Shown here: positions 5,900 to 60,587 of the stretch, piece by piece | Layout: each line of letters opens with the position of its first letter | How positions within the stretch are numbered: the stretch's first letter is position 1 | Assembly: GCA_964589935.1 (NCBI GenBank) | Contig: CAZPVD010000001.1 | Location: 352,818 to 416,817, forward strand | From: an uncultured Verrucomicrobiota bacterium | GTDB lineage: Bacteria > Verrucomicrobiota > Verrucomicrobiia > Limisphaerales > VHCN01 | Direction of reading: 5' to 3' | Length of the DNA stretch: 64,000 nt | Notes under the pieces: model-generated | Seen by the model: the letters and a program-made list of their open reading frames with translations, nothing else | Database searches by the model: none | Told to the model about the DNA's origin: nothing | Position numbers and translations under genes: made by a program

Positions 5900-7243
5900 T
5901 CAAGGCACGGGCGAAACCGAGACGGCCTTAAGCAAAGTCTGAGGGGCGTTGGTGGTGCGAATAATGACTTGCGCCCAGACGAACTTATCCGAGCCGGTGA
6001 AGGGCAACTCAGTTTGTCCGGGCTTGAGCGGTTCGGAGTTCACGACAGGCAAGCCATACTGCGTGCTTTGACGCCAGCGGACAATTACGTCGCCCGTCCC
6101 ACCGGCCTGCCAGTTCAGAAGGAGTTTGTAGCTCTTACCCTTTTCGAGCGGGAGCAGTTCGCCTTCCCAGCCTTCCTTCGTGCGATACCAGCAGTCGGGA
6201 GCCACAGGCGAAATCCACCTTTGCTCGAAGCATGGATTTCGCACCATGTTTTGTTCACGCCCGTCAAATTCAGGCACATTCTCATCATGGAAGGAAATCC
6301 GACCATCTTGATCAACTCGGACTTTCATTTTCATGCTCTGAAATCCGTCACGAAATGCGACGAATTCAAATTCTCCGCGCGGCAGGTTTCCAAAACAGAG
6401 CGTGCCATTGGTATCACATAACGTGGCGAATTGTGTGTTGAGCATGAGCGCCCGAATGGGCAGGCGTTTGTTTCCTTCCGGCCAGATTGAGAAGGTCGAG
6501 TAATGCTTCGCTATATCCTGATTCGGAGAGGAAGTAATTCTCCCTAACGTGTGCAGTAAATCCGCCACCACCCGGCTCGTCTCCAGCGCACTTTCGAGCA
6601 CGATGGGTTCCACCTCGGCGCGGTTGCTGGCGAGCACGAGCGGACGGCAGCGTTCGCCGCGCTCCTTCGAGAAGACAATGAGTCCGTCCATGCGCTTGAG
6701 GAAGCCCGCGAGCGCTTCGTCCTCTGTTCTGCCGAGCAATTGCGGCCGGTAGTTGCCGAGCTTGATGAGTTTCGCGTCCACCCAGTTCTCCATCTTGCTA
6801 TGCACGTCGCCGCGAATCTCCGCGGCGTGCGGCGGCGAGCCGGTGTCCTCCACGAAGTGCAGCAGCGAGCCGATCCAGCGCGCGGCGTTCGCGTCGTTCT
6901 CGGTGCGCAGTGCCTGCATGGCACGGCGGAAGTAGGGCGTGTAAGCCAGCTTCACCTCGGGGCAGAGATGGTCGAGATGCCGCTCCATGCCGGGAAACAG
7001 CAGGTAATCATCCGCGTAGAACCACTCGCCGTCGCGGTCGAACGGCACACGGCGATAGTCCGCCATCCAGCAGTAGTGCGTGAGCTTCTTCGCGAACGGG
7101 CCGAGATGCTTGACGAGTGCGTCCTCCGGGCCGAGTGCGTCGAGCGCGGCCTGGGTGATTTCAGAATGCGGCCCCCACCCGAACGCCCGCGTCGAGGCGA
7201 GCGCGAGCAGCAAGCAAACGAAGAGGGCCGCGAAAGTTCTCAT
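5900..7243 (-). CDS. secreted zinc phospholipase C / S1-P1 nuclease-fold protein with C-terminal beta-sandwich-like domain
   Basis: 447-aa ORF. A signal peptide is followed by a mature N-terminus WGPHSEIT. LLHFVEDTGSPPHA and further His/Asp ligand candidates resemble the Zn-dependent PLC/P1 nuclease superfamily. The C-terminal ~200 aa are encoded by lower-GC DNA. Confidence 0.5.
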   Translation of the reverse strand: MRTFAALFVCLLLALASTRAFGWGPHSEITQAALDALGPEDALVKHLGPFAKKLTHYCWMADYRRVPFDRDGEWFYADDYLLFPGMERHLDHLCPEVKLAYTPYFRRAMQALRTENDANAARWIGSLLHFVEDTGSPPHAAEIRGDVHSKMENWVDAKLIKLGNYRPQLLGRTEDEALAGFLKRMDGLIVFSKERGERCRPLVLASNRAEVEPIVLESALETSRVVADLLHTLGRITSSPNQDIAKHYSTFSIWPEGNKRLPIRALMLNTQFATLCDTNGTLCFGNLPRGEFEFVAFRDGFQSMKMKVRVDQDGRISFHDENVPEFDGREQNMVRNPCFEQRWISPVAPDCWYRTKEGWEGELLPLEKGKSYKLLLNWQAGGTGDVIVRWRQSTQYGLPVVNSEPLKPGQTELPFTGSDKFVWAQVIIRTTNAPQTLLKAVSVSPVP

Positions 7244-26509: not shown

Positions 26510-27283
26510 GTGAAACTTATACGACTCAAACAGCGACTGTGGTGGGCGGTGCCCGTTGTCACCGCCGCGACACTGATTGCCTGCTCCACCGTGCAGCGTG
26601 TCATGCTCGCGCCGCCGCAGATTCCCGGCGCGGCACTCGTCGGGTCGGCCAACTGCGCACAGTGCCACGCGGAGGTTTCAAAGGGATTTCACACTGCGAC
26701 GCACGCAAGGATCGTCGCCAAGGGCGACAACGCATTGAACATGGGCTGCGAATCCTGCCACGGCCCCGGCAGCCTTCACTCGCAAAGTGGCGGGGCGCGC
26801 AACACCATCATCAATCCACGCGAGTCGTCCGAGACGTGCTTCCAATGCCATCTCGACAAGCGCGGTGAGTTCAGCCTGCCGCATCATCACCCCGTGCCGG
26901 AGGGCAAAATCAGTTGTGCCGATTGCCACAACCCGCACAAGGGCGACGCGGTCAAGGGCGGTGGCACGCAACTCGCCACGGAGCACCAGACCTGCGCGCG
27001 CTGCCACACCGCTCAAGGCGGACCGTTCGTCTTTGAACACGAGGCCGTGCATGAAGGCTGCACCACCTGCCACAACCCGCACGGCAGCGTGAACGCACGG
27101 ATGCTCGTGCAACGCAACCAGAACCTCTGTCTCAAGTGCCATTTCCAACAACAGACAGCCGCGGGCGTGATCGTCATTGGCGGCCGCGACCACACGTCGT
27201 TCCTGCGGCGCGGGACGTGCTGGTCGGCCGGTTGCCATGAAGCCGTGCATGGCTCGCAAATCGGGTCGAGCTTGCGATTCTGA
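26510..27283 (+). CDS. multihaem c-type cytochrome lipoprotein (7 CxxCH + 1 CxxxxCH), MtrA/OmaB-like periplasmic component
   Basis: The ORF track extends to 26111 inside the kinase gene. I call the GTG at 26510, giving MKLIRLKQRLWWAVPVVTAATLIAC|S (lipobox). Haem motifs: CAQCH, CESCH, CFQCH, CADCH, CARCH, CTTCH, CLKCH, plus CWSAGCH followed by EAVHGS. Confidence 0.85.
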   Translation: MKLIRLKQRLWWAVPVVTAATLIACSTVQRVMLAPPQIPGAALVGSANCAQCHAEVSKGFHTATHARIVAKGDNALNMGCESCHGPGSLHSQSGGARNTIINPRESSETCFQCHLDKRGEFSLPHHHPVPEGKISCADCHNPHKGDAVKGGGTQLATEHQTCARCHTAQGGPFVFEHEAVHEGCTTCHNPHGSVNARMLVQRNQNLCLKCHFQQQTAAGVIVIGGRDHTSFLRRGTCWSAGCHEAVHGSQIGSSLRF

Positions 27284-27299
27284 AACCAAGGAAGCTCCA

Positions 27300-29465
27300 A
27301 TGAACTCCACCGCCCTCATCTGCAAAGATTTTTGTCGGGCACCGCGCGTTCTGAGCCTGCTCATCGCGTCGCTTTTTGCAGCGTTGTGGCCAGTCGTTGC
27401 GCAAGTCACGACTGATAAGGTTGCTGACGCTGCAAAGCCGCCCGCGGACGTCCTTGCCCCTGAAAGTGCGAAGGACAATTCCATTACCCTCGGCGTCGGC
27501 GGCTGGTTCACGCGGGGGAATGACGCGCAGTTCATGCAACGAACCGGCCAGCGGTCGGGCGCGTTTGGGGGTATCGAAAATTTCCACTGGGAACAAACGG
27601 TCACAAACCAAGGTCTGTTGAAAGTGGATGGACGCGGCCTGTTCGACAATCACGACTATTTGCTGAAGATGGAACTCTCGTATCCTGACCGTGGTTACAT
27701 CCACGCGGGTTATCGCGAGTTTCGCACATGGTATGACGGCAGCGGCGGGTTCTTTCCGCGGAACGGCCAGTTTTTCAACCTTTACGACGACCGCCTCGCG
27801 CTCGACCGAGGCAATGCGTGGTTTGAGGCAGGCTGGACACCGCTTGACGGCCCGCAGGTCACGTTCCGCTATGACTATCAATTTCGGCGCGGGCAAAAGG
27901 ACTCCACGTCATGGGGCGACACCTCGCTCACTGGTCTTCCGCCACCGAACAACGTGCGCAACATCGTGCCGTCATTTTGGGACATTGACGAAAAGCGGCA
28001 TATCTTCGCCGGTGACGTGAAGCACACAGTCGGACCTACCGATTTGAGCCTCGGATTGCGCTATGAACTTGTCGAGGACAATAACTCGCTTAACGAACAC
28101 CGCCGCCCCGGCGAGGCATCGGATCGCTTTGTAACTCAGCACGAGAATTTCAGTTCGGACTTGTTTAACACCCACTTCGGCAGTGAGACGAGATGCACGG
28201 ACAAGCTGATGTTCACAATGGGCTACTCGTTCACCGTGCTTGATACGGACATTTCCGGCAGCCGTATCTATGGTGCGGACTATGACGCGATGTTTGATCC
28301 GACGTTTGCGCGGCGCCAGCAGTTTGACGAAGGTTTCATCAATCTCGGCGGCGGCGCCCAGCTCAAGCAACATGTGGCAAACTTCAGTGTGCTCAACACA
28401 CCGTGGGAAGATTTCTCCATCGTCACAGCGGTGCGCGTCGAAAAATACGACACTGATGGTGTCGCCAGCTTCATTGACACCGCCGTAGGGGCTGCGCCCG
28501 GATTGGTGACTTCGCAGACACCGACGTTGAACACAAGTTCGAGCGGTTTCGTGGATGTGAGCGAAAGCCTTGAAGCACGCTACACGGGGCTGCGGGACTG
28601 GGCGTTCTATGCGCGCGGCGAATGGCTCGAAGGAAACGGCTCTCTCTCCGAACGCGAAATGAATGCAACGACGCTGGCCTTGAGCTTGTTTCGTGATACG
28701 GATTCGGAACGCTTTACACAGAAGTATTCCCTCGGTGCCAACTGGTATCCGCTCCGCAACCTAAACCTTGGCGGTCAATACTATCACAAGCAGCGTGACA
28801 ATTCCTACACACACACAAGTGACTCGACCAGCAACTCTGGCGCAAGTGGTGATCGTTATCCCGCCTATCTGCTCGATCAGAACTTCACAACGGATGACAT
28901 GAACGTCCGAGTAACTTGGCGGCCCTGGTTAAATCTGACATTGGTCACCCGATATGATTTCCAGTTTTCGACAATCAATACGAGACCCGATGGCTTGGCT
29001 GAGGTCCAAAGCGCGGACGTTACAACGCATATCATTAGTGAGTCTATATCGTGGAGTCCCGCCAATCGTTGGTATCTTCAAGCCACACTCAACTATGTTG
29101 TGGACAACACTGATACTCCAGCGCAGGACATTTCCGGCGGCGCATCAAGCATCATTCTCCCTGCGCGGAACAATTATTGGAATGCAAGCTTCACCGCAGG
29201 CTTTGCGCTTAATGAGAAAGCGGATCTTGTTGCGAATTACTTTTATTACAGAGCCAATAATTATACGGATAACTCAAGCACCGGTATGCCATACGGAGCT
29301 GGCGCGGAGGAGCATGGATTCACCGCGTCTCTTGTCCGGAGAATCACAGCAAATATCACCTGGACTCTGAAATATGGCTATTTCCGAAATCGGGATACTT
29401 CTTCTGGAATGAACAACAATTACGAGGCGCACCTGCTTTACACAAGTTGGCGCATGGGTTTTTGA
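27300..29465 (+). CDS. large outer-membrane beta-barrel protein, MtrB/PioB-like porin candidate
   Basis: ATG at 27300 preceded by AAGGAAG, 16 nt after the cytochrome stop. Signal peptide ...SLFAALWPVVAQ. ~721 aa rich in alternating aromatic/polar beta-strand patterns (Y/W/F, N, D, T, G), with C-terminal ...LLYTSWRMGF ending in Phe as in OMP barrels. Confidence 0.7.
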   Translation: MNSTALICKDFCRAPRVLSLLIASLFAALWPVVAQVTTDKVADAAKPPADVLAPESAKDNSITLGVGGWFTRGNDAQFMQRTGQRSGAFGGIENFHWEQTVTNQGLLKVDGRGLFDNHDYLLKMELSYPDRGYIHAGYREFRTWYDGSGGFFPRNGQFFNLYDDRLALDRGNAWFEAGWTPLDGPQVTFRYDYQFRRGQKDSTSWGDTSLTGLPPPNNVRNIVPSFWDIDEKRHIFAGDVKHTVGPTDLSLGLRYELVEDNNSLNEHRRPGEASDRFVTQHENFSSDLFNTHFGSETRCTDKLMFTMGYSFTVLDTDISGSRIYGADYDAMFDPTFARRQQFDEGFINLGGGAQLKQHVANFSVLNTPWEDFSIVTAVRVEKYDTDGVASFIDTAVGAAPGLVTSQTPTLNTSSSGFVDVSESLEARYTGLRDWAFYARGEWLEGNGSLSEREMNATTLALSLFRDTDSERFTQKYSLGANWYPLRNLNLGGQYYHKQRDNSYTHTSDSTSNSGASGDRYPAYLLDQNFTTDDMNVRVTWRPWLNLTLVTRYDFQFSTINTRPDGLAEVQSADVTTHIISESISWSPANRWYLQATLNYVVDNTDTPAQDISGGASSIILPARNNYWNASFTAGFALNEKADLVANYFYYRANNYTDNSSTGMPYGAGAEEHGFTASLVRRITANITWTLKYGYFRNRDTSSGMNNNYEAHLLYTSWRMGF

Positions 29466-29502
29466 ACACTATCACATCTCACTACTAACAAAACTGGCTA
29501 TT

Positions 29503-29838
29503 ATGAAATCAAAGTTAATCATCACGGCGGCAGTTGTGCTTCTGCCCATTGGAGTTATCTCGACTCGGGCGGATGATGCACAGTCAGATTGGACCAAACA
29601 CTGCCTCAAGTGCCATGGCGCCGCCGGCAAGGGCGAAACCCGCATGGGCCGGCAGCTCCGCGTGAAGGATTACTCCGACCCGAAGGTGCAGGCCGAGATG
29701 AAGGACGAGGACATGCTCCGCATCCTGCGCGACGGCGTGAAGGACGGCGCGAAGGTCAAGATGGAGGCCTACAAGGACAAGTTGTCCGAGCCGGAGATCA
29801 AGGACCTCCTCGCCCTCGTGCGCAGCTTCAAGAAGTAG
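29503..29838 (+). CDS. monohaem class I c-type cytochrome, periplasmic
   Basis: 111-aa ORF with a signal peptide, a single CLKCH haem site, and a distal Met candidate (KVKMEAY). Confidence 0.85.
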   Translation: MKSKLIITAAVVLLPIGVISTRADDAQSDWTKHCLKCHGAAGKGETRMGRQLRVKDYSDPKVQAEMKDEDMLRILRDGVKDGAKVKMEAYKDKLSEPEIKDLLALVRSFKK

Positions 29839-54953: not shown

Positions 54954-56456
54954 TCAGTCGCGGCCACCCGCGCTAAACGCTCCACCGCGCTGGTTGTTCA
55001 TCGCCCTCGCAAGCGTGAGCAGCGGGCCGGTGAAGAACGTCGTGACCAGCGCCATCAGCACGAGCATCGCGAAGATGCGCGGTGAAAGGATGCCGAGGTC
55101 GTAGCCGATGTTCAACGCGATGAGTTCGATGAGGCCGCGTGTGTTCATCAGCGCACCGAGCGCGAAGGAATCGTTCCAGTTCATGCCCGTGCATCGCGCC
55201 GTGAGCATGGTGCCGCCGAGCTTGCCGAATGTCGCGAGTGCGACGATGCCGAGGCAGGTGAGCCAGCCGCCCGCGTCGTTTAGCAGGCCGATTTGTGTCC
55301 GCAATCCGGTGAAGACGAAGAACAGCGGCAGCAGGAAAACCGAGCTGAAGTTCTCGATTCGCACGCTGAGCCGGTGACGAAACTCGCCGTGCGCGGGCAT
55401 CACCACGCCGGCAAGAAACGCGCCGAACAACGGGTGGATGCCGATGATTTCCGTCGCAAGTGCGCTCGCGAGCACAAGCCCCAGCACGAATGCCAGCACG
55501 CCCTTGCCCGGCGATTCAGCGTTGAGCGCTTCATCACCGATCCATCGTTCCAAACGCGGCCGGATCACCAGCAGCATGACGGACACGAAAACAATCACCA
55601 AAGCAATCGTGAGCACCGAGCCAGACAGCGCGTCCGTCTTCACGATGGCCACAACAAACGCCAGGATGCACCACGCCGCCACGTCGCCAGCCGCCGCGCA
55701 TGTGAGCGCCGTGCTGCCCAGCGGCGTCTTGGACATGCCTCGTTCTTGCAAAATTCTCGCGAGCACCGGAAACGCCGTGATGCTCATGGAAATTCCCATG
55801 AACAGTGCGAAGGCCGTGAAGGATGTGCCTGGTGTTGCCAGTGTCGAAAACAAAAACAGCGCCGCCACCGTGCCGAGAAAATACGGGAACGCGATGCTCA
55901 TCTGGCTTACCAGCACGGCAGTTCGCGCCTGATGACGGAGGTGGGTCACGTCGAGTTCCATTCCAATCGCGAACATGAACAGGCAGACACCGATTTGACT
56001 CAGCAACTTGAGCGTGCCCAACGATGCCACGGGAAAGACGAAACCGAACACATCCGGCGCAAGCCAGCCAAGCAGTGACGGACCGAGCACAATGCCCGCG
56101 GCCATCTCGCCGACCACCGCGGGCTGGCCCATGCGCGCGAAAGCCGCGCCGAAAATCCGGGCCGTTGCGATGATGACGATCAACTGGAAGAACAGCCGGC
56201 TCAACGGCTCGTCCAGATTCGATTTCAGGCCGGAAAAAGCCCCTTGCTGCGCGATCACTTTCTTTGCCGTCGCCGGAAACGTTTCCAAAAGCTTGGAGAT
56301 TTTTGCTTCAACCGGCGCGGGGGCGACGAGCGTCTGCCCGTGCCGCAAAATGAGGCCGATGCCCAGCCCGAAGACCAGCAGCACCGAGATGTAGATGAGA
56401 AGGTTCCTGTTCAAATGCCGTGTCGCCGGAGTTGATAACAGCAACCGCGCCAGCAT
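54954..56456 (-). CDS. cation:proton antiporter (CPA2, Kef/NapA-like Na_H exchanger fold)
   Basis: The track ORF (54954-58193, 1079 aa) is a long antisense run-on. The transporter begins at the ATG at 56456 (MLARLLLSTPATRHLNRNLLIYISVLLVF...). It has ~12 TM helices with GEMAAGIVLGPS, FMFAIGMELD and TAFPVLARIL. Confidence 0.85.
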   Translation of the reverse strand: MLARLLLSTPATRHLNRNLLIYISVLLVFGLGIGLILRHGQTLVAPAPVEAKISKLLETFPATAKKVIAQQGAFSGLKSNLDEPLSRLFFQLIVIIATARIFGAAFARMGQPAVVGEMAAGIVLGPSLLGWLAPDVFGFVFPVASLGTLKLLSQIGVCLFMFAIGMELDVTHLRHQARTAVLVSQMSIAFPYFLGTVAALFLFSTLATPGTSFTAFALFMGISMSITAFPVLARILQERGMSKTPLGSTALTCAAAGDVAAWCILAFVVAIVKTDALSGSVLTIALVIVFVSVMLLVIRPRLERWIGDEALNAESPGKGVLAFVLGLVLASALATEIIGIHPLFGAFLAGVVMPAHGEFRHRLSVRIENFSSVFLLPLFFVFTGLRTQIGLLNDAGGWLTCLGIVALATFGKLGGTMLTARCTGMNWNDSFALGALMNTRGLIELIALNIGYDLGILSPRIFAMLVLMALVTTFFTGPLLTLARAMNNQRGGAFSAGGRD

Positions 56457-56544
56457 GTCCACCGCGACCGCTCGGTCCCGGCAGACGATGAAACTTCCAC
56501 TCGCCATGCAGCGCCAGTTTCGCCTAAGCTCCCCGCCCTGATTC

Positions 56545-56622
56545 GGTAGGGACGCGCTGCGGTGCGTCCTTGCTTTCTCCGCAGTCGGCACCGTGATGGA
56601 CGCGGAGCACCGCGTCCCTACC
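56545..56622. repeat. REP-like inverted repeat in the alaS leader
   Basis: Arms GGTAGGGACGCGCTGCGGTGCGTCC (56545-56569) and GGACGCGGAGCACCGCGTCCCTACC (56598-56622). The outer 12 bp are perfectly complementary. The repeat ends 11 nt before the alaS ATG. Confidence 0.6.
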
Positions 56623-56633
56623 GGACACATCGC

Positions 56634-59600
56634 ATGATGACCAGCACGCAAATCCGCCAGTCGTTCCTCGACTTCTTCAAGTCGAAGCAGCACACCATCG
56701 TCCCCTCGTCCAGCCTCATGCCGGACAGCCCGAACCTGCTCTTCACCAACGCCGGCATGAACCAGTTCGTGCCCATCTTCCTCAACGAGACCAAGTGCCC
56801 CTACTCGCCCGGCCGCGCCGCCGACACGCAAAAGTGCATCCGCGCCGGCGGCAAGCACAACGACCTCGATGACGTCGGCCTCGACACCTACCACCACACG
56901 TTCTTCGAGATGCTCGGCAACTGGTCCTTCGGCGACTACTTCAAGCGCGAGGCCATCAGTTGGGCGTGGGAGCTGGTCATCGAAGTCTGGAAGTTCCCGC
57001 CGCAGCGCCTCTACGCGACGGTCTATTGCCCCGACAAAACCAAGGGCGACCCCAGCGAGTTCGATCAGGAGGCGTGGAACTTCTGGGCCGAGAAATTCCG
57101 CTCCGTCGGCCTCGACCCCGCCGTCCACATCGTCAACGGCAACAAGAAAGACAACTTCTGGATGATGGGCGACACCGGCCCGTGCGGCCCGTGCTCCGAA
57201 CTCCACGTGGACCTCACGCCCGCCGGCGACACCCGCGGCCTGCTGGTCAACAAAGGCACCGCCGAGTGCATCGAGATTTGGAACCTCGTCTTCATCCAGT
57301 TCAACGCGAACGCCGACGGCACCTTCAGCCCGCTCCCGGCCAAGCATGTGGACACCGGCATGGGCTTCGAGCGCGTGACTAGCATCATCCAAGGCACCAA
57401 GAACTTCACCGACTTCGCCAACGCGAAGATTTCCAACTACGAGACCGACATCTTCCGCCCCATTTTCGACGAGCTGGGGCAGATGAGCGGGAAGAAATAC
57501 GGCAGCACGCTGCCGCAGGGGAGCGCGACCGTCCCGGTCGCCCCGGTCGGCGTCCCGCCGACCGGTCCCACGCGCACGACGAATCCGATTGCGCCATCCA
57601 CTTCCTACGCGCCCGAGTCCGCTGCGCGGGACGCGCAGCAGGGCGACCGGGACGGTCGCGCTCCCCAGGCGATAGCGCCCCAATCGCAAGTTCCCCAAGT
57701 CACTTATTACAAACGCCGCCTTCCGCACTTCGAGCGTCCGTGGGCCAAATACATGGTCAGCTTCACGACGCGCGAGCGGAAGCAGCTCTCCGAGGCGGCG
57801 CGCGCGGTCGTGCTCAAGAGCCTGCTCTTCGGCCACGAGCAGCGTCGCTATCAGATGTATGCCGCGTGTGTCATGCCCGACCACGTTCACTTTCTGTTTG
57901 AGCCGCAAATCAAGGAGCAGGACAAGGACGGCCAGCCCGTGTTCTGGCCGCTCGCCGAGTTGATGCATTCGATCAAGTCTTTCACCGCGCACGAAATCAA
58001 CAAGCTGGAGAAGACCACGGGCCAGGTGTGGGAGAACGAATCGTTCGACCGGATGATTCGCGGCGACGCCGACCTCGAAGAAAAATTCCACTACATCTGT
58101 CGCAACCCATGGGACTCCGGCGTCGCTCCCCTCACCGAGAACTACCGCTGGCTCTGGACACCCGACGCCATCGCCGAGGAGAAGCAAAGTCACGAAACAA
58201 CCAAGAGCGCGACCGTTCTAGAAAAGGGGAGCGCGACCGTCCCGGTCGCTCCGGTCGGCGTCCCGCCGACCGATTCTTCGCGCGGGGGCGCGGCGAGATT
58301 GTCAACAGTTCTGACTTCCCACGCGCCAGGGGCTGTTGCGCGGGACGCGCAACAGAGCGACCGGGACGGTCGCGCTCCCCAAACGTCCGCTCCCCATGCG
58401 GAGCAAATCCAGATCGACATCGCCTTTCGCGTCATCGGCGACCATATCCGCACGTTGAGCTTCGCCATCGCGGATGGCATCCAGCCGGGCAACACCGACC
58501 GCAACTACGTCCTGCGCCGCATCCTGCGCCGCGCGGTGCGCTACGGCCGCACGCTCGGCTTCCACGAGCCGTTTTTTTACAAGCTCGTGGACGTGCTCGC
58601 CGCGACGATGGGCGATGTCTTCCCCGAAATCCGCACCCGCCAGCAGCACGTTAAGGATGTGCTCAAGCTGGAGGAGGAGAGTTTTAACAAGACGTTGGAT
58701 GCTGGAATCGCTCTGTTTGAGGAAGTGATTCGTCTGGAGAAGACGTTGAGAGAATTAGTCGAAAATTTGGTCCCACACATCGAGAAGATTGAAATTGTGG
58801 CGGCGAAGAGCTTTGGAACATCCGAGGCGAGCCTACAATCGTTGAACGACATCTACACAGATGTCCAAGTTGTAGCCGGAGAAGTTAGAGGATTGAACCG
58901 CGATCTCTGGTTCAAAATGGCGGAAAAGGAAGAGCGGAGTTTAGTCGAAGCTGCACAGCAGTTGCTAAACATCGTCAACACCCTCTTCGATGAGTCAGTT
59001 CCTGTTTCTGTTCGGGAGGCATTTGCGAATGAGGCGGAAACTCACATCGCTTCTATCCGCACAGGGCTAGTGACCATCGCAAAAAGACCGAATGAGTTTC
59101 GCAGCAGTGCGGCATTCGTTCTCTACGACACCTACGGCTTCCCCCTCGACCTCACCGAGTTGATGGCCCGCGAACGTGGCCTGGCCGTGGACGTGGCCGG
59201 CTTCAACGCCTTGATGGAGGAGCAAAAGGCCCGCGCCCGTGCCGCGCAGAAGAAGACCGTCATCGAGCTGTCCCAAATCGAGACCAAGACGCCCACGCGC
59301 TTCCTCGGCTACGACGCGCTGGAGACGCCCGCGCGCGTGCTCGAAGTCGTCGGCCTCAAGGACAAGACCGCCGTGGTGCTCGACACCTCCACCTGCTACG
59401 CCGAGATGGGCGGCCAGCTCGGCGACACGGGCGAAATCCTCCACGTCCCGGTAGCAGCCGACGTGAGTCGGCTCAAACTCTCAGATGGAGCGGACTTACG
59501 TCCGCTGCTACGCGTCACGAACACGCAGAAGTCCGGCAACACCTGGCTGCATTTCGTAGAAGGCGACGAGCTTCCCGCCACGGGAGACACCGTGGTTCTC

Positions 59601-60587
59601 CGGGTGAACAAATCGCGCCGCGATGCGATCCAGCGCCACCACACCGTCACGCACCTGTTGCACTGGGCCTTGCACGAGGTCGTGGGCCAGGAAGCCTCGC
59701 AGAAAGGCTCCTTCGTCGGGCCGGACAAGCTGACCTTCGACTTCAACAGCGCCGCGCTCACGCCCGCGCAGGTCGCGGACATCGAGAAGCTCGTCAACGA
59801 GCGCATCGTCGAAAACGCCGGTGTCTCGTGGACCGAAGTCCCGCACGCCGACGTGAAGTCGCGCAAGGACGTGATGCAGTTCTTCGGCGACAAATACGGC
59901 GACACCGTGCGCGTCGTGCAGATCGGCGGCCACGCCACGAAGCTCGACGGCTACAGCATGGAACTCTGCGGCGGCACGCACACGCGCGCGACCGGCGAGA
60001 TCGGCCTCTTCCGCATCGTCGGCGAGAACGCGATTGCCGCCGGCGTGCGCCGCATCGAAGCCGTCGCCGGCCTCACCGCCTTCGACGCGATGCGCCTGGA
60101 CCGCGAGTTGATCCGCACCGTGGCCGGCAAGGTGAATTCCCCCATCCACGAACTGGAAAAGAAGATCGAGTTGGTGCTCGCGCACCAGAAGGAGCTGGAG
60201 AAGGCGCTCAAGACCTCCATCGCGCGCAACGCCGCGCAGACCGCCGCGTGGTTGCTCACGCGCGTGACGGAAGTGAACGGCATCCAGCTCATCACGCAGG
60301 GTTTCCCGGACGGCGACACGGAATATCTGCAAGCCGTGGTGGACGCGCTCAAGAGCCATTTCAAGGGCGTCATCGTCCTCGGCGGCGCGGCAAATGGCGC
60401 GGTGGCGCTGGTCGCGGCCGTTTCGCCGGAGTTCACTGCGAAGATTCAAGCGGGCAAAATCATCCAGCAGATCGCGCCCATCGTCGGCGGCAAGGGCGGC
60501 GGCAAGCCCGACAACGCCCGCGGCGGCGGCAAGGACGCCAGCAAGCTCGACGCAGCGCTGGCAAAGGTGAAGGAGTTGGTCGTCTGA
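56634..60587 (+). CDS. alaS: alanine--tRNA ligase carrying three in-frame insertions (1317 aa versus ~880 canonical)
   Basis: Start MMTSTQIRQSFLDFFKSKQHTIVPSSSL at 56634 (the track ORF starts at 56562). AlaRS motifs FTNAGMNQF, HHTFFEMLGNWSFGDYFK, DTGMGFERV, AFRVIGDHIRT, LYDTYGFPLDLT, editing-site HTVTHLLHWAL...CGGTH, and C-terminal GGKGGGKPDNARGGG. Confidence 0.9.
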   Translation: MMTSTQIRQSFLDFFKSKQHTIVPSSSLMPDSPNLLFTNAGMNQFVPIFLNETKCPYSPGRAADTQKCIRAGGKHNDLDDVGLDTYHHTFFEMLGNWSFGDYFKREAISWAWELVIEVWKFPPQRLYATVYCPDKTKGDPSEFDQEAWNFWAEKFRSVGLDPAVHIVNGNKKDNFWMMGDTGPCGPCSELHVDLTPAGDTRGLLVNKGTAECIEIWNLVFIQFNANADGTFSPLPAKHVDTGMGFERVTSIIQGTKNFTDFANAKISNYETDIFRPIFDELGQMSGKKYGSTLPQGSATVPVAPVGVPPTGPTRTTNPIAPSTSYAPESAARDAQQGDRDGRAPQAIAPQSQVPQVTYYKRRLPHFERPWAKYMVSFTTRERKQLSEAARAVVLKSLLFGHEQRRYQMYAACVMPDHVHFLFEPQIKEQDKDGQPVFWPLAELMHSIKSFTAHEINKLEKTTGQVWENESFDRMIRGDADLEEKFHYICRNPWDSGVAPLTENYRWLWTPDAIAEEKQSHETTKSATVLEKGSATVPVAPVGVPPTDSSRGGAARLSTVLTSHAPGAVARDAQQSDRDGRAPQTSAPHAEQIQIDIAFRVIGDHIRTLSFAIADGIQPGNTDRNYVLRRILRRAVRYGRTLGFHEPFFYKLVDVLAATMGDVFPEIRTRQQHVKDVLKLEEESFNKTLDAGIALFEEVIRLEKTLRELVENLVPHIEKIEIVAAKSFGTSEASLQSLNDIYTDVQVVAGEVRGLNRDLWFKMAEKEERSLVEAAQQLLNIVNTLFDESVPVSVREAFANEAETHIASIRTGLVTIAKRPNEFRSSAAFVLYDTYGFPLDLTELMARERGLAVDVAGFNALMEEQKARARAAQKKTVIELSQIETKTPTRFLGYDALETPARVLEVVGLKDKTAVVLDTSTCYAEMGGQLGDTGEILHVPVAADVSRLKLSDGADLRPLLRVTNTQKSGNTWLHFVEGDELPATGDTVVLRVNKSRRDAIQRHHTVTHLLHWALHEVVGQEASQKGSFVGPDKLTFDFNSAALTPAQVADIEKLVNERIVENAGVSWTEVPHADVKSRKDVMQFFGDKYGDTVRVVQIGGHATKLDGYSMELCGGTHTRATGEIGLFRIVGENAIAAGVRRIEAVAGLTAFDAMRLDRELIRTVAGKVNSPIHELEKKIELVLAHQKELEKALKTSIARNAAQTAAWLLTRVTEVNGIQLITQGFPDGDTEYLQAVVDALKSHFKGVIVLGGAANGAVALVAAVSPEFTAKIQAGKIIQQIAPIVGGKGGGKPDNARGGGKDASKLDAALAKVKELVV
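57518..57666 (+). repeat. left REPIN-like hairpin pair
   Basis: Arm 57518-57558 is GGGGAGCGCGACCGTCCCGGTCGCCCCGGTCGGCGTCCCGC. Arm 57626-57666 is its imperfect reverse complement (first 26 nt perfect, ~35/41 overall). The loop is 67 nt. Confidence 0.8.
58226..58380 (+). repeat. right REPIN-like hairpin pair (direct copy of the left one)
   Basis: Arms 58226-58266 and 58340-58380 are 40/41 and 39/41 identical to the left-hand arms, in the same orientation. The loop is 73 nt. Confidence 0.8.
58731..59106 (+). other. ~125-codon in-frame insertion of low-GC DNA in the alaS tRNA-recognition (helical) domain
   Basis: It lies between conserved ...LDAGIALFEEVI and AAFVLYDTYGFPLDLT, where canonical AlaRS has only ~15-25 residues. 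Hand-counted GC is 201/420 (47.9%) for 58681-59100 versus 58-68% in the four flanking 60-nt lines. Confidence 0.7.
59451..59511. repeat. 61-bp nested palindrome (REPIN-like doublet) in-frame within alaS
   Basis: GTAGCAGCCGACGTGAGTCGGCTC...GAGCGGACTTACGTCCGCTGCTAC. The halves are 21/24 complementary and each half is itself a hairpin (AGCCGAC-GTGA-GTCGGCT and AGCGGAC-TTAC-GTCCGCT). It encodes ~VAADVSRLKLSDGADLRPLL. Confidence 0.7.

Follow-up and report, generated by a model that had tools for sequence, protein, structure and literature searches.

The alaS gene and its predicted helical insert

We analyzed a 64,000-nucleotide stretch of DNA (hereinafter the window) from an uncultured Verrucomicrobiota bacterium (GenBank assembly GCA_964589935.1, contig CAZPVD010000001.1, positions 352,818–416,817, forward strand), in which the alaS gene for alanine–tRNA ligase (alanyl-tRNA synthetase, hereinafter AlaRS) carries three in-frame insertions. 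The second of these, singled out in a preliminary description made from the letters of the DNA, is the subject of this work: it occupies a loop that is a hot spot for insertions throughout the phylum, and it probably entered this copy of the gene within a short patch acquired by homologous recombination. The host gene and the insert are placed as follows:

56634–60587, plus strand: alaS, alanine–tRNA ligase, 1317 codons beginning with ATG ATG (56634), with three in-frame insertions
58731–59102, plus strand: the insert proper, 124 codons in place of a 9-residue loop (chain positions 382–390 of 3HXU)

The open reading frame (ORF) as listed spans 56562–60587, and we inferred the start at 56634 from the MMTSTQIRQSFLDFF N-termini of relatives. 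Pfam searches with the host ORF recovered tRNA-synt_2c (PF01411; 1.8e-168), tRNA_SAD (9.8e-16), and DHHA1 (3.9e-13), giving it the class II catalytic and tRNA-recognition core, the editing-domain tRNA_SAD, and the C-terminal DHHA1 of an AlaRS. In a phmmer comparison with the Escherichia coli enzyme (3HXU), residues 14–116 of the fragment starting at 58383 align with chain positions 279–381 and residues 241–288 with positions 391–438; therefore, 124 residues (58731–59102) substitute for 9, in good agreement with the insertion of about 125 residues in the tRNA-recognition domain that had been proposed for this gene. The last insert residue lies 8 positions ahead of the tyrosine in L-Y-D-T-Y-G. 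The codons for this tyrosine (59124–59126) and the following aspartate (59127–59129) are equivalent to those of E. coli Tyr399 and Asp400, which together with Gly403 make minor-groove contacts to the G3:U70 pair of tRNA-Ala (PMC6055181). This G3:U70-reading Tyr-Asp-x-x-Gly motif is intact in the window (L-Y-D-T-Y-G-F-P at 59121–59144), and its columns are invariant in the alignment.

The tract codes for protein and is translated within AlaRS: it has no stop codon in the alaS frame as against 4–10 in the five other frames (probability of no stop 1.5e-4, from shuffles), and its first codon positions are G-rich. An AlphaFold model of the region in context (58383–59285, with an alignment of 81 AlaRS sequences) has a mean predicted local distance difference test score (pLDDT) of 87.5, with the insert at 70–89 and predicted to consist entirely of helices (87–141, 148–169, 173–179, 182–201, and 208–233). 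In this model, the AlaRS helix continues straight into the insert (helix 87–141), and after the last insert helix the chain returns to the helix bearing AFVLYDTYGF. Modeling of the patch defined below on its own, with no alignment, again yielded all helices at low confidence (pLDDT 62). Both models agree with the helix-rich segment of the preliminary description, and they predict an antiparallel helical bundle. The insert, which begins with RLEK and finishes with PNEF/RSS, is mildly acidic (net charge –5, isoelectric point 5.1). As previously noted, its edges have no hairpins or repeats (0 inverted repeats, and only trivial direct repeats), in contrast to the transposase-bearing insertion upstream, whose hairpin arms measure 58–63 nt.

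The low GC content that first drew attention to the tract is real. The hand count of 201/420 (47.9%) for 58681–59100 and the values for the four adjacent 60-nt lines (58.3, 60.0, 61.7, and 68.3%) were exact on recount, and a 200-nt profile gives 47–50% at 58600–59100 versus 59–70% in flanking alaS. The drop is seated at the third codon positions, whose GC content (GC3) in 40-codon windows is 0.53–0.60 in the tract versus 0.85–0.95 over most of alaS; for the insert itself the figures are 0.55 versus ~0.91–0.92 in the flanks. The 438-nt patch has 49.1% GC (z = –3.5), which ranks it among the lowest 0.75% of windows of similar length (436 nt) across the 64 kb, where only four regions fall at or below 50%. 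A frame shift or inversion of native sequence was rejected as a cause, as neither would bring total GC down from 0.65 to 0.49.

The other lowest-GC spots of the window (45–50%) are at 29087–29522 and 28645–29080, within a plus-strand ORF (27177–29465), and at 6112–6547, within a minus-strand ORF (5900–7243). The former two lie in the C-terminal half of a 762-residue protein, rich in Asn, Tyr, Thr, and Ser, that may be an outer-membrane β-barrel protein; the latter lies inside a 447-residue ORF with an N-terminus that appears signal-peptide-like. Neither ORF spot is an insert in a conserved gene.

The loop across Verrucomicrobiota and the nearest insert family

We examined the same loop, delimited as the sequence between the motifs F-x-x-T-L-x-x-G and L-Y-D-x-x-G-F-P, in two collections of alaS loci. 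A scan of one genome per species supplied 80 loci, almost all from Verrucomicrobiota (L001–L080; 78 scored), and a metagenome set gathered independently by means of the AlaRS C-terminal domain supplied the others (L081–L160; 57 scored). Loops of up to 16 residues were classed as short linkers, and the remainder as in-frame RAYTs (Y1/HUH transposases) or peptide inserts:

Genome set, 78 loci: short linker 8, in-frame RAYT 6, peptide insert 64; inserts of at least 40 residues with GC3 below that of their flanks, 60/62; median difference –0.26
Metagenome set, 57 loci: short linker 5, in-frame RAYT 10, peptide insert 42; inserts of at least 40 residues with GC3 below that of their flanks, 30/30; median difference –0.34

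The short linker, which the preliminary description had taken as canonical, is thus confined to 13 of the 135 loci; in-frame RAYTs account for 16 and peptide inserts for 106. The peptide inserts reach ~155 residues, none contains a stop codon, and they sort into a few families and many singletons. Those of L009 and L014 are only 46% identical within flanks that are 95% identical, with a nonsynonymous rate (dN) of 0.40 and a saturated synonymous rate (dS) in the insert versus a dN of 0.03 and a dS of 0.54 in the flanks. Throughout the Verrucomicrobiota, this AlaRS loop is thus a permissive hot spot, the contents of which evolve several-fold faster than the enzyme.

The shift towards AT is equally general. 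Across both sets, 90 of the 92 inserts of at least 40 residues are shifted towards AT in comparison with the alaS flanks of the same locus, and the GC3 deficit exceeds 0.2 in 42 of the 62 larger inserts of the genome set. Averaged over 59 loci, GC3 goes from ~0.75 to ~0.53, falling from the L-D-x-G-I-x-x-F codons onwards and recovering at L-Y-D. Related inserts each keep the low GC3: those of L009 and L014 have 0.42 and 0.43, and members of a second family (family B) have 0.34–0.58 versus 0.75–0.97 in the flanks. The strongest contrast in composition was found in L088 (insert 0.20, flank 0.80). As the AT shift is a standing property of the loop, low GC on its own is no proof of recent foreign origin. 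The earlier reading of the tract as a horizontally acquired new module was only partly right: an imported patch is the best-supported account, as set out below, but the GC dip is not itself evidence for it, given that related inserts retain low GC3 across speciation.

What generates the shift is a separate matter. Exchange within a closed set of Verrucomicrobiota alaS genes was judged unlikely and discarded as its source, the shift being one-directional even in low-GC hosts, and an external AT-rich source was not found in the searched collections. Drift in situ under relaxed codon selection fits the slowly evolving inserts of the family described next, with their host-like GC3, and the fast ones with low GC3; against it, the codons of one mRNA should not differ in codon selection. 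As an account of the window insert, pure drift under relaxed constraint was rejected: only four regions of the 64 kb are at or below 50% GC, and the divergence of the edge codons is also contrary to it.

Searches with the insert segment by itself recovered no close homologue. Pfam gave no family (best E = 0.045), and the PDB sequences gave no match (best E ~1, to an archaeal single-stranded DNA-binding protein [SSB]); this OB-fold/SSB lead from phmmer was dropped, both AlphaFold models being all-α. No homologue surfaced in a word-index search of 5.8 billion proteins, and an exhaustive phmmer search of 1.84 billion representatives returned three matches only, to LysM, HPt, and leucine-rich repeat proteins, which matched on several repeats and were judged spurious. 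Scans of JGI metagenomes found no relative of the insert, those of GTDB species genomes no close homologue, and those of phage, plasmid, and IMG/VR collections nothing significant. A Foldseek comparison with the PDB retrieved AlaRS structures and otherwise only non-significant, generic helical bundles. Rfam matched nothing within the insert at E up to 1; a sub-threshold Twister-sister match outside it was taken as chance. The JGI metagenomes scanned with the AlaRS C-terminal domain contained no relative closer than 82%.

A profile built from inserts only, with the flanks trimmed, did reveal a remote relationship. The largest group of loop inserts, which we here define as family A, comprises those of L003, L004, L005, L011, L012, L024, L032, L035, L040, and L050, from genomes that include ones labeled Chthoniobacter, Verrucomicrobiales, Opitutia, and Kiritimatiellales. 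The hidden Markov model (HMM) of this family recovered the window insert as its best non-member match (E = 2.2e-6, 20.4 bits; the maximum in 2000 shuffles was 10.9 bits), while the HMMs of four other families, RAYT included, gave E of at least 0.9. Comparison by hhalign returned P = 1.5e-4 over the central helices, and a jackhmmer search seeded with the window insert converged on all ten members; when metagenome inserts were added, it also gained L089, L127, and L006 and lost L032, L035, and L040. A profile search combining family A and the window insert yielded a single AlaRS fragment. The window insert aligns colinearly with the family over its whole length, at 12–22% identity; the insertion point, between GIxxF and AFxLYD, is shared, and the 124 residues of the window insert fall within the family range of 109–124. 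We accordingly regard the window insert, on profile evidence, as a remote and very divergent member of the most widespread AlaRS insert family, which places its origin in an AlaRS-specific family rather than in DNA from outside alaS. In its composition, it departs from family A, in which GC3 is host-like (+0.02 to –0.07 relative to the flanks) as opposed to 0.55 against 0.91 in the window. A homologous segment of host-like composition, which would have made the insert an ancient feature of the phylum rather than an acquisition, is thus present for family A in some orders only, namely at the ten loci named above. Family A has a dN/dS of ~0.14–0.32 in Chthoniobacterales and Opitutales, indicating purifying selection.

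Edges of the insert and its probable origin

The conserved codons on both sides of the insert differ in ancestry from the rest of the gene. We delimited these features as follows:

58698–59135, plus strand: candidate recombination patch, DAGIALFEEVI + insert + SSAAFVLYDTY, of an ancestry unlike that of the alaS backbone
58698–58730, plus strand: 5′ edge of the patch, D-A-G-I-A-L-F-E-E-V-I, encoded by AT-ending codons, among them one that is triple-substituted
59103–59135, plus strand: 3′ edge of the patch, S-S-A-A-F-V-L-Y-D-T-Y; the backbone resumes at 59136 with GGC, the Gly403-equivalent

In a tree of the backbone (860 gap-free columns), the window AlaRS is sister to L058 and L060, with 86–87% amino-acid identity. 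Its close relatives have either an in-frame RAYT (L058, L059, L060, L067, and L072) or 12–15 residues (L064, L070, L071, L075, and L077–L080) at the loop in question, and all of them display LD(K/R)G...F(N/E) and AFAF(R/K)LYDEQGFP around it; the window departs from them with LDAG...FEEVI and AAFVLYDTYGFP. At the nucleotide level, blastn matches to L058 and L060 (91–95% identity) end at 58693–58717 and resume exactly at 59136. In codon comparisons with L058, L060, L059, L064, L072, and L070, the 5′ edge includes the triple-substituted codon, GCT for Ala versus AAG/AAA for Lys in the relatives; relative to L060 and L058, it differs at 8 of 21 bases and then at 5 of 18 (L060) or 8 of 18 (L058). 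The low-GC tract had been said to start slightly inside conserved AlaRS codons, which holds true; it begins, however, at D-A-G-I-A-L-F (58698), the preceding S-F codons (AGT TTT) being native to the clade and shared with L058. At the 3′ edge, the 10 codons 59106–59135 match L058 and L060 at 43% of bases, L002 at 90%, and L001 and L021 at 80%, and over the 29 codons downstream the ranking is reversed, with 91–95% identity to L058 and L060. Overall, 30–33 of 69 bases (43–48%) in the alignable conserved edge codons (58698–58736 and 59106–59135) differ from L060 and L058 as against 33 of 585 (5.6%) outside the patch (blocks B and C; Fisher p = 6e-16 for L060 and 1e-18 for L058). The multi-base changes include AAG/AAA to GCT (Lys to Ala), CGC to GTT (Arg to Val), and GAG CAG to ACC TAC (Glu-Gln to Thr-Tyr). 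The tract thus has the sharp breakpoints and high internal divergence of a mosaic patch, with edges nearer to another lineage than to its own backbone.

The last of these changes bears on the loop as a whole: among the 135 loci, D-T-Y is found in 95 of the 106 with a peptide insert versus 5 of the 29 with a short linker or RAYT, and D-E-Q in 24 of those 29. This covariation of Thr-Tyr or Glu-Gln with loop content could reflect phylogeny, co-transfer, or structural coupling. The backbone is itself mosaic, the ranking of nearest relatives shifting across the blocks 56634–57515, 58413–58694, 59136–59438, and 59625–60584: L058 is 92, 98, 96, and 82% identical in these, respectively; L016 and L003 reach 91% in the first block only; and L014 reaches 93% in part of the last. 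The mosaic structure of alaS would accordingly extend far past the insert. The RAYT of the first insertion is in addition 94% identical in protein to that of L002, as opposed to 78–88% for the AlaRS backbones. Given the mosaic backbone and the L002-like RAYT in a less similar backbone, alaS alleles of this group appear to exchange segments commonly.

The origin that we consider probable is therewith one of the two that the preliminary description had put forward, and the best supported by the edge codons, the breakpoints, and the Thr-Tyr/Glu-Gln states: a ~438-bp patch imported by homologous recombination from a different alaS allele in which the insert was already present. The starting point would have been a backbone of the clade with D-E-Q-G-F-P and either no insert or a RAYT at the loop, and the donor a distant, insert-bearing allele of the DTY type (AAFVLYDTY). 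The insert, a predicted all-helical excursion from the helix-loop-helix of the tRNA-recognition domain 8 residues before the G3:U70 reader, would have been transferred with ~11 conserved codons on each side (58698–59135) into the DEQ-type backbone by crossovers in the conserved FNKTLD and YGFP codons. In some lineages of the phylum, the contents of the loop are replaced by an in-frame RAYT or lost outright. That the window, rather than its relatives, is the recombinant we infer by parsimony from the states of the backbone clade.

Certain points weigh against this reconstruction. None of the collections searched yielded a donor lineage with the same insert, or anything closer to the insert than remote family A, so that the import is deduced from the patch edges only. 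The AT shift, being phylum-wide, is unusable as evidence for import. The relationship to family A rests on ~20 bits and 12–22% identity. The 5′ edge is partly clade-like (GIALF is retained, and EEVIRL resembles EEVIRI of L062), so that the crossover is less sharply defined there than at the 3′ edge. The association of Thr-Tyr or Glu-Gln with insert presence could reflect co-adaptation rather than co-transfer, and a chimera formed at k-mers conserved in alaS is possible if the window derives from a metagenome assembly.

We consider it unlikely that an ancestral family A module was retained vertically in place and drifted fast with an AT bias, its close relatives having lost it or gained a RAYT. 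The occurrence of family A across several orders suggests an old module, inserts do diverge far faster than their flanks (46% versus 95% in L009 and L014), related inserts such as these two and family B retain low GC3, and, as the mean AT shift over the 59 loci extends into the LDxGIxxF codons, an AT-shifted edge is not specific to the window. Vertical retention would nonetheless demand several triple-base changes at strictly conserved edge codons against a backbone divergence of 5.6%, in a gene that nests with L058 and L060 in a group uniformly LDKG...FNEE and AFAFRLYDEQ; the 90% identity of the 3′ edge to the distant L002 allele also counts against it. It seems less probable still that the loop is a true cassette locus, in which AT-rich helical modules and in-frame RAYTs are exchanged between alaS alleles across orders, with the invariant flanking codons as anchors, and in which selection, such as that against factors directed at AlaRS or at the recognition of tRNA-Ala, maintains the variability instead of neutral drift. 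Were this so, a core translation enzyme would contain a hypervariable, horizontally exchanged module. A related proposal, that the bundle beside the G3:U70 reader is an adaptive module that tunes tRNA-Ala selection or binds a partner under diversifying selection (e.g., to escape an AlaRS-targeting factor), we regard as improbable. The insert is 8 residues from Tyr399/Asp400, inserts of ~110–145 residues have been kept in many lineages and never with stops, family A is under the purifying selection described above, and the neighboring Thr-Tyr or Glu-Gln co-varies with insert presence; however, no residue is conserved across the insert families, the insert is mildly acidic like 41 of 62 inserts, several relatives lack one, and dN exceeds dS in no pair, with the saturated insert dS of L009/L014 fitting relaxed constraint rather than positive selection.

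The breakpoints in highly conserved codons and the absence of a second copy of the tract from any collection searched would also be expected of an assembly chimera, in which a 438-bp tract from another organism in the sample was joined at conserved alaS k-mers. A double switch within 438 bp is nonetheless unusual, frame and helix continuity are perfect over both junctions, and 90 of 92 independent assemblies, megabase contigs and a complete chromosome among them (L036, L037, and L046), likewise show an AT-shifted insert in GC-rich flanks; we hold this to be very unlikely. Finally, a degraded mobile element, namely a decayed RAYT/REPIN, intein, or intron-like sequence, is largely refuted and the least credible of the origins, even though both of the other alaS insertions, one a RAYT/REPIN element and the other a short repeat-like peptide, derive from repeats and a RAYT occupies this loop in the nearest relatives. 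The insert is unlike the RAYT family (HMM E = 2.4), has 0 inverted repeats, and has a GC3 of 0.55 versus 0.63–0.83 in RAYT inserts. Pfam detects no Hint domain in it, its boundaries have no Cys/Ser ... His-Asn junction residues of an intein, and the predicted fold is all-α. For a self-splicing intron or structured RNA, there is no Rfam match within the insert, and the frame is open in 135/135 loci; for a diversity-generating retroelement, there is no second copy or template repeat of the tract by blastn and tblastx within the 64-kb window.

Whatever its route into the window, the insert is probably a tolerated and largely dispensable surface excursion and not a catalytic or RNA-binding element. 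Tolerance rather than requirement is suggested by the close relatives that lack an insert, by the lack of any residue conserved across insert families, by the mostly mildly acidic inserts, and by the ability of the loop to hold a transposase of 208–267 residues. A conserved RNA contact is made less likely by the net charge of –5 and by the fast evolution of the insert; the new tRNA- or protein-interaction role floated in the preliminary description is neither supported nor excluded.

Other insertions in alaS and comparison with known systems

The first insertion of the window alaS is of a different kind:

57518–58396, plus strand: in-frame RAYT (Y1/HUH transposase; Pfam Y1_Tnp 1.9e-5) with two REPIN-like hairpins

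Its hairpin arms form the inverted repeats I1 and I2, accompanied by the direct repeats D1 and D2; the HVH and Y-x-x-x-N-P motifs of the transposase are intact, in frame, and free of stops, and the element occurs once in the 64 kb. RAYTs at this same site are present in L001, L002, L008, L009, L019, L022, L048, L049, L064, and L068, and others occupy the loop of the second insertion in genomes (L047, L058, L059, L060, L067, and L072) and metagenomes (L101, L106, L110, L128, L136, L137, L140, L146, L147, and L152). In all, in-frame RAYTs are found in the alaS of 16 of the 80 species genomes and of at least 10 of the 57 metagenome contigs, at two recurrent loops. As RAYTs are normally described as extragenic, this alaS-resident, in-frame lineage looks unusual. 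In L115, the second-insertion loop (site 430) consists only of ARLQGNLPAASVVSGV, which looks like a REP-derived flank left behind after the loss of a RAYT such as that in L101 and L136. The third, small in-frame insertion (59439–59489; LHVPVAADVSRLKLSDG; local GC3 0.68–0.75) looks like a short repeat-derived footprint, and a similar 17-residue peptide, YSASVAADISRLKPSDE, is at the same site in L064. A 1079-residue minus-strand ORF (54954–58193) overlaps the start of alaS and is partly an artefact: its N-terminal two-thirds are the stop-free antisense of the GC-rich alaS and its REPIN hairpins, and its C-terminal part, judged without a domain search, reads as a multi-pass membrane protein, possibly a cation/proton antiporter.

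AlaRS is among the most conserved enzymes, and its recognition of the single G3:U70 pair is a textbook case. A whole phylum nevertheless tolerates up to ~155 fast-evolving and compositionally odd residues, or an entire transposase, beside the reader of this pair, and in so doing provides a natural set of domain-insertion experiments on the robustness of G:U recognition. The interest of the locus lies less in the single insert than in the hot spot that it revealed. It also offers a warning that a GC dip inside a core gene, taken alone, does not prove foreign DNA, and that alaS, a common phylogenetic marker, is mosaic in this group.

Aminoacyl-tRNA synthetases are known for idiosyncratic insertion domains. 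Comparable lineage-specific sequence insertions in a conserved enzyme are SI1–SI3 of the E. coli RNA polymerase β/β′ subunits (PMC2939025). The AlaRS insert resembles both in being a predicted independently folding module in a surface loop of an essential enzyme that is present in one lineage and absent from the orthologues of model organisms. Unlike them, the AlaRS loop is filled, in place of a single conserved domain, by dozens of sequences with little or no relationship to one another; its contents are AT-shifted in 90 of 92 lineages and interchangeable with a transposase gene or with nothing at all.

The mosaic penicillin-binding-protein genes of Streptococcus and Neisseria arose by homologous recombination between diverged orthologues. 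The alaS patch is akin to these as a short internal block, sharply more divergent than its close backbone and of another composition, with crossovers in conserved codons; it differs in having neither an identified donor nor a known selective agent, and in carrying a whole extra domain in place of point differences. With inteins, the window insert has in common that it is an in-frame, foreign-looking segment near a critical motif of a conserved housekeeping gene; in contrast to them, it has no splicing-junction residues and no Hint fold, being predicted to be all-α. The palindromic elements of Rickettsia are reportedly inserted in frame within protein-coding genes. As with these elements and the REP/RAYT systems (PMC2817692, PMC3116915, PMC5581495), alaS, and in relatives the very same loop, has hosted tolerated in-frame insertions of selfish elements; unlike them, the window insert has no palindromes or transposase motifs and is of another composition, and it is not such an element.

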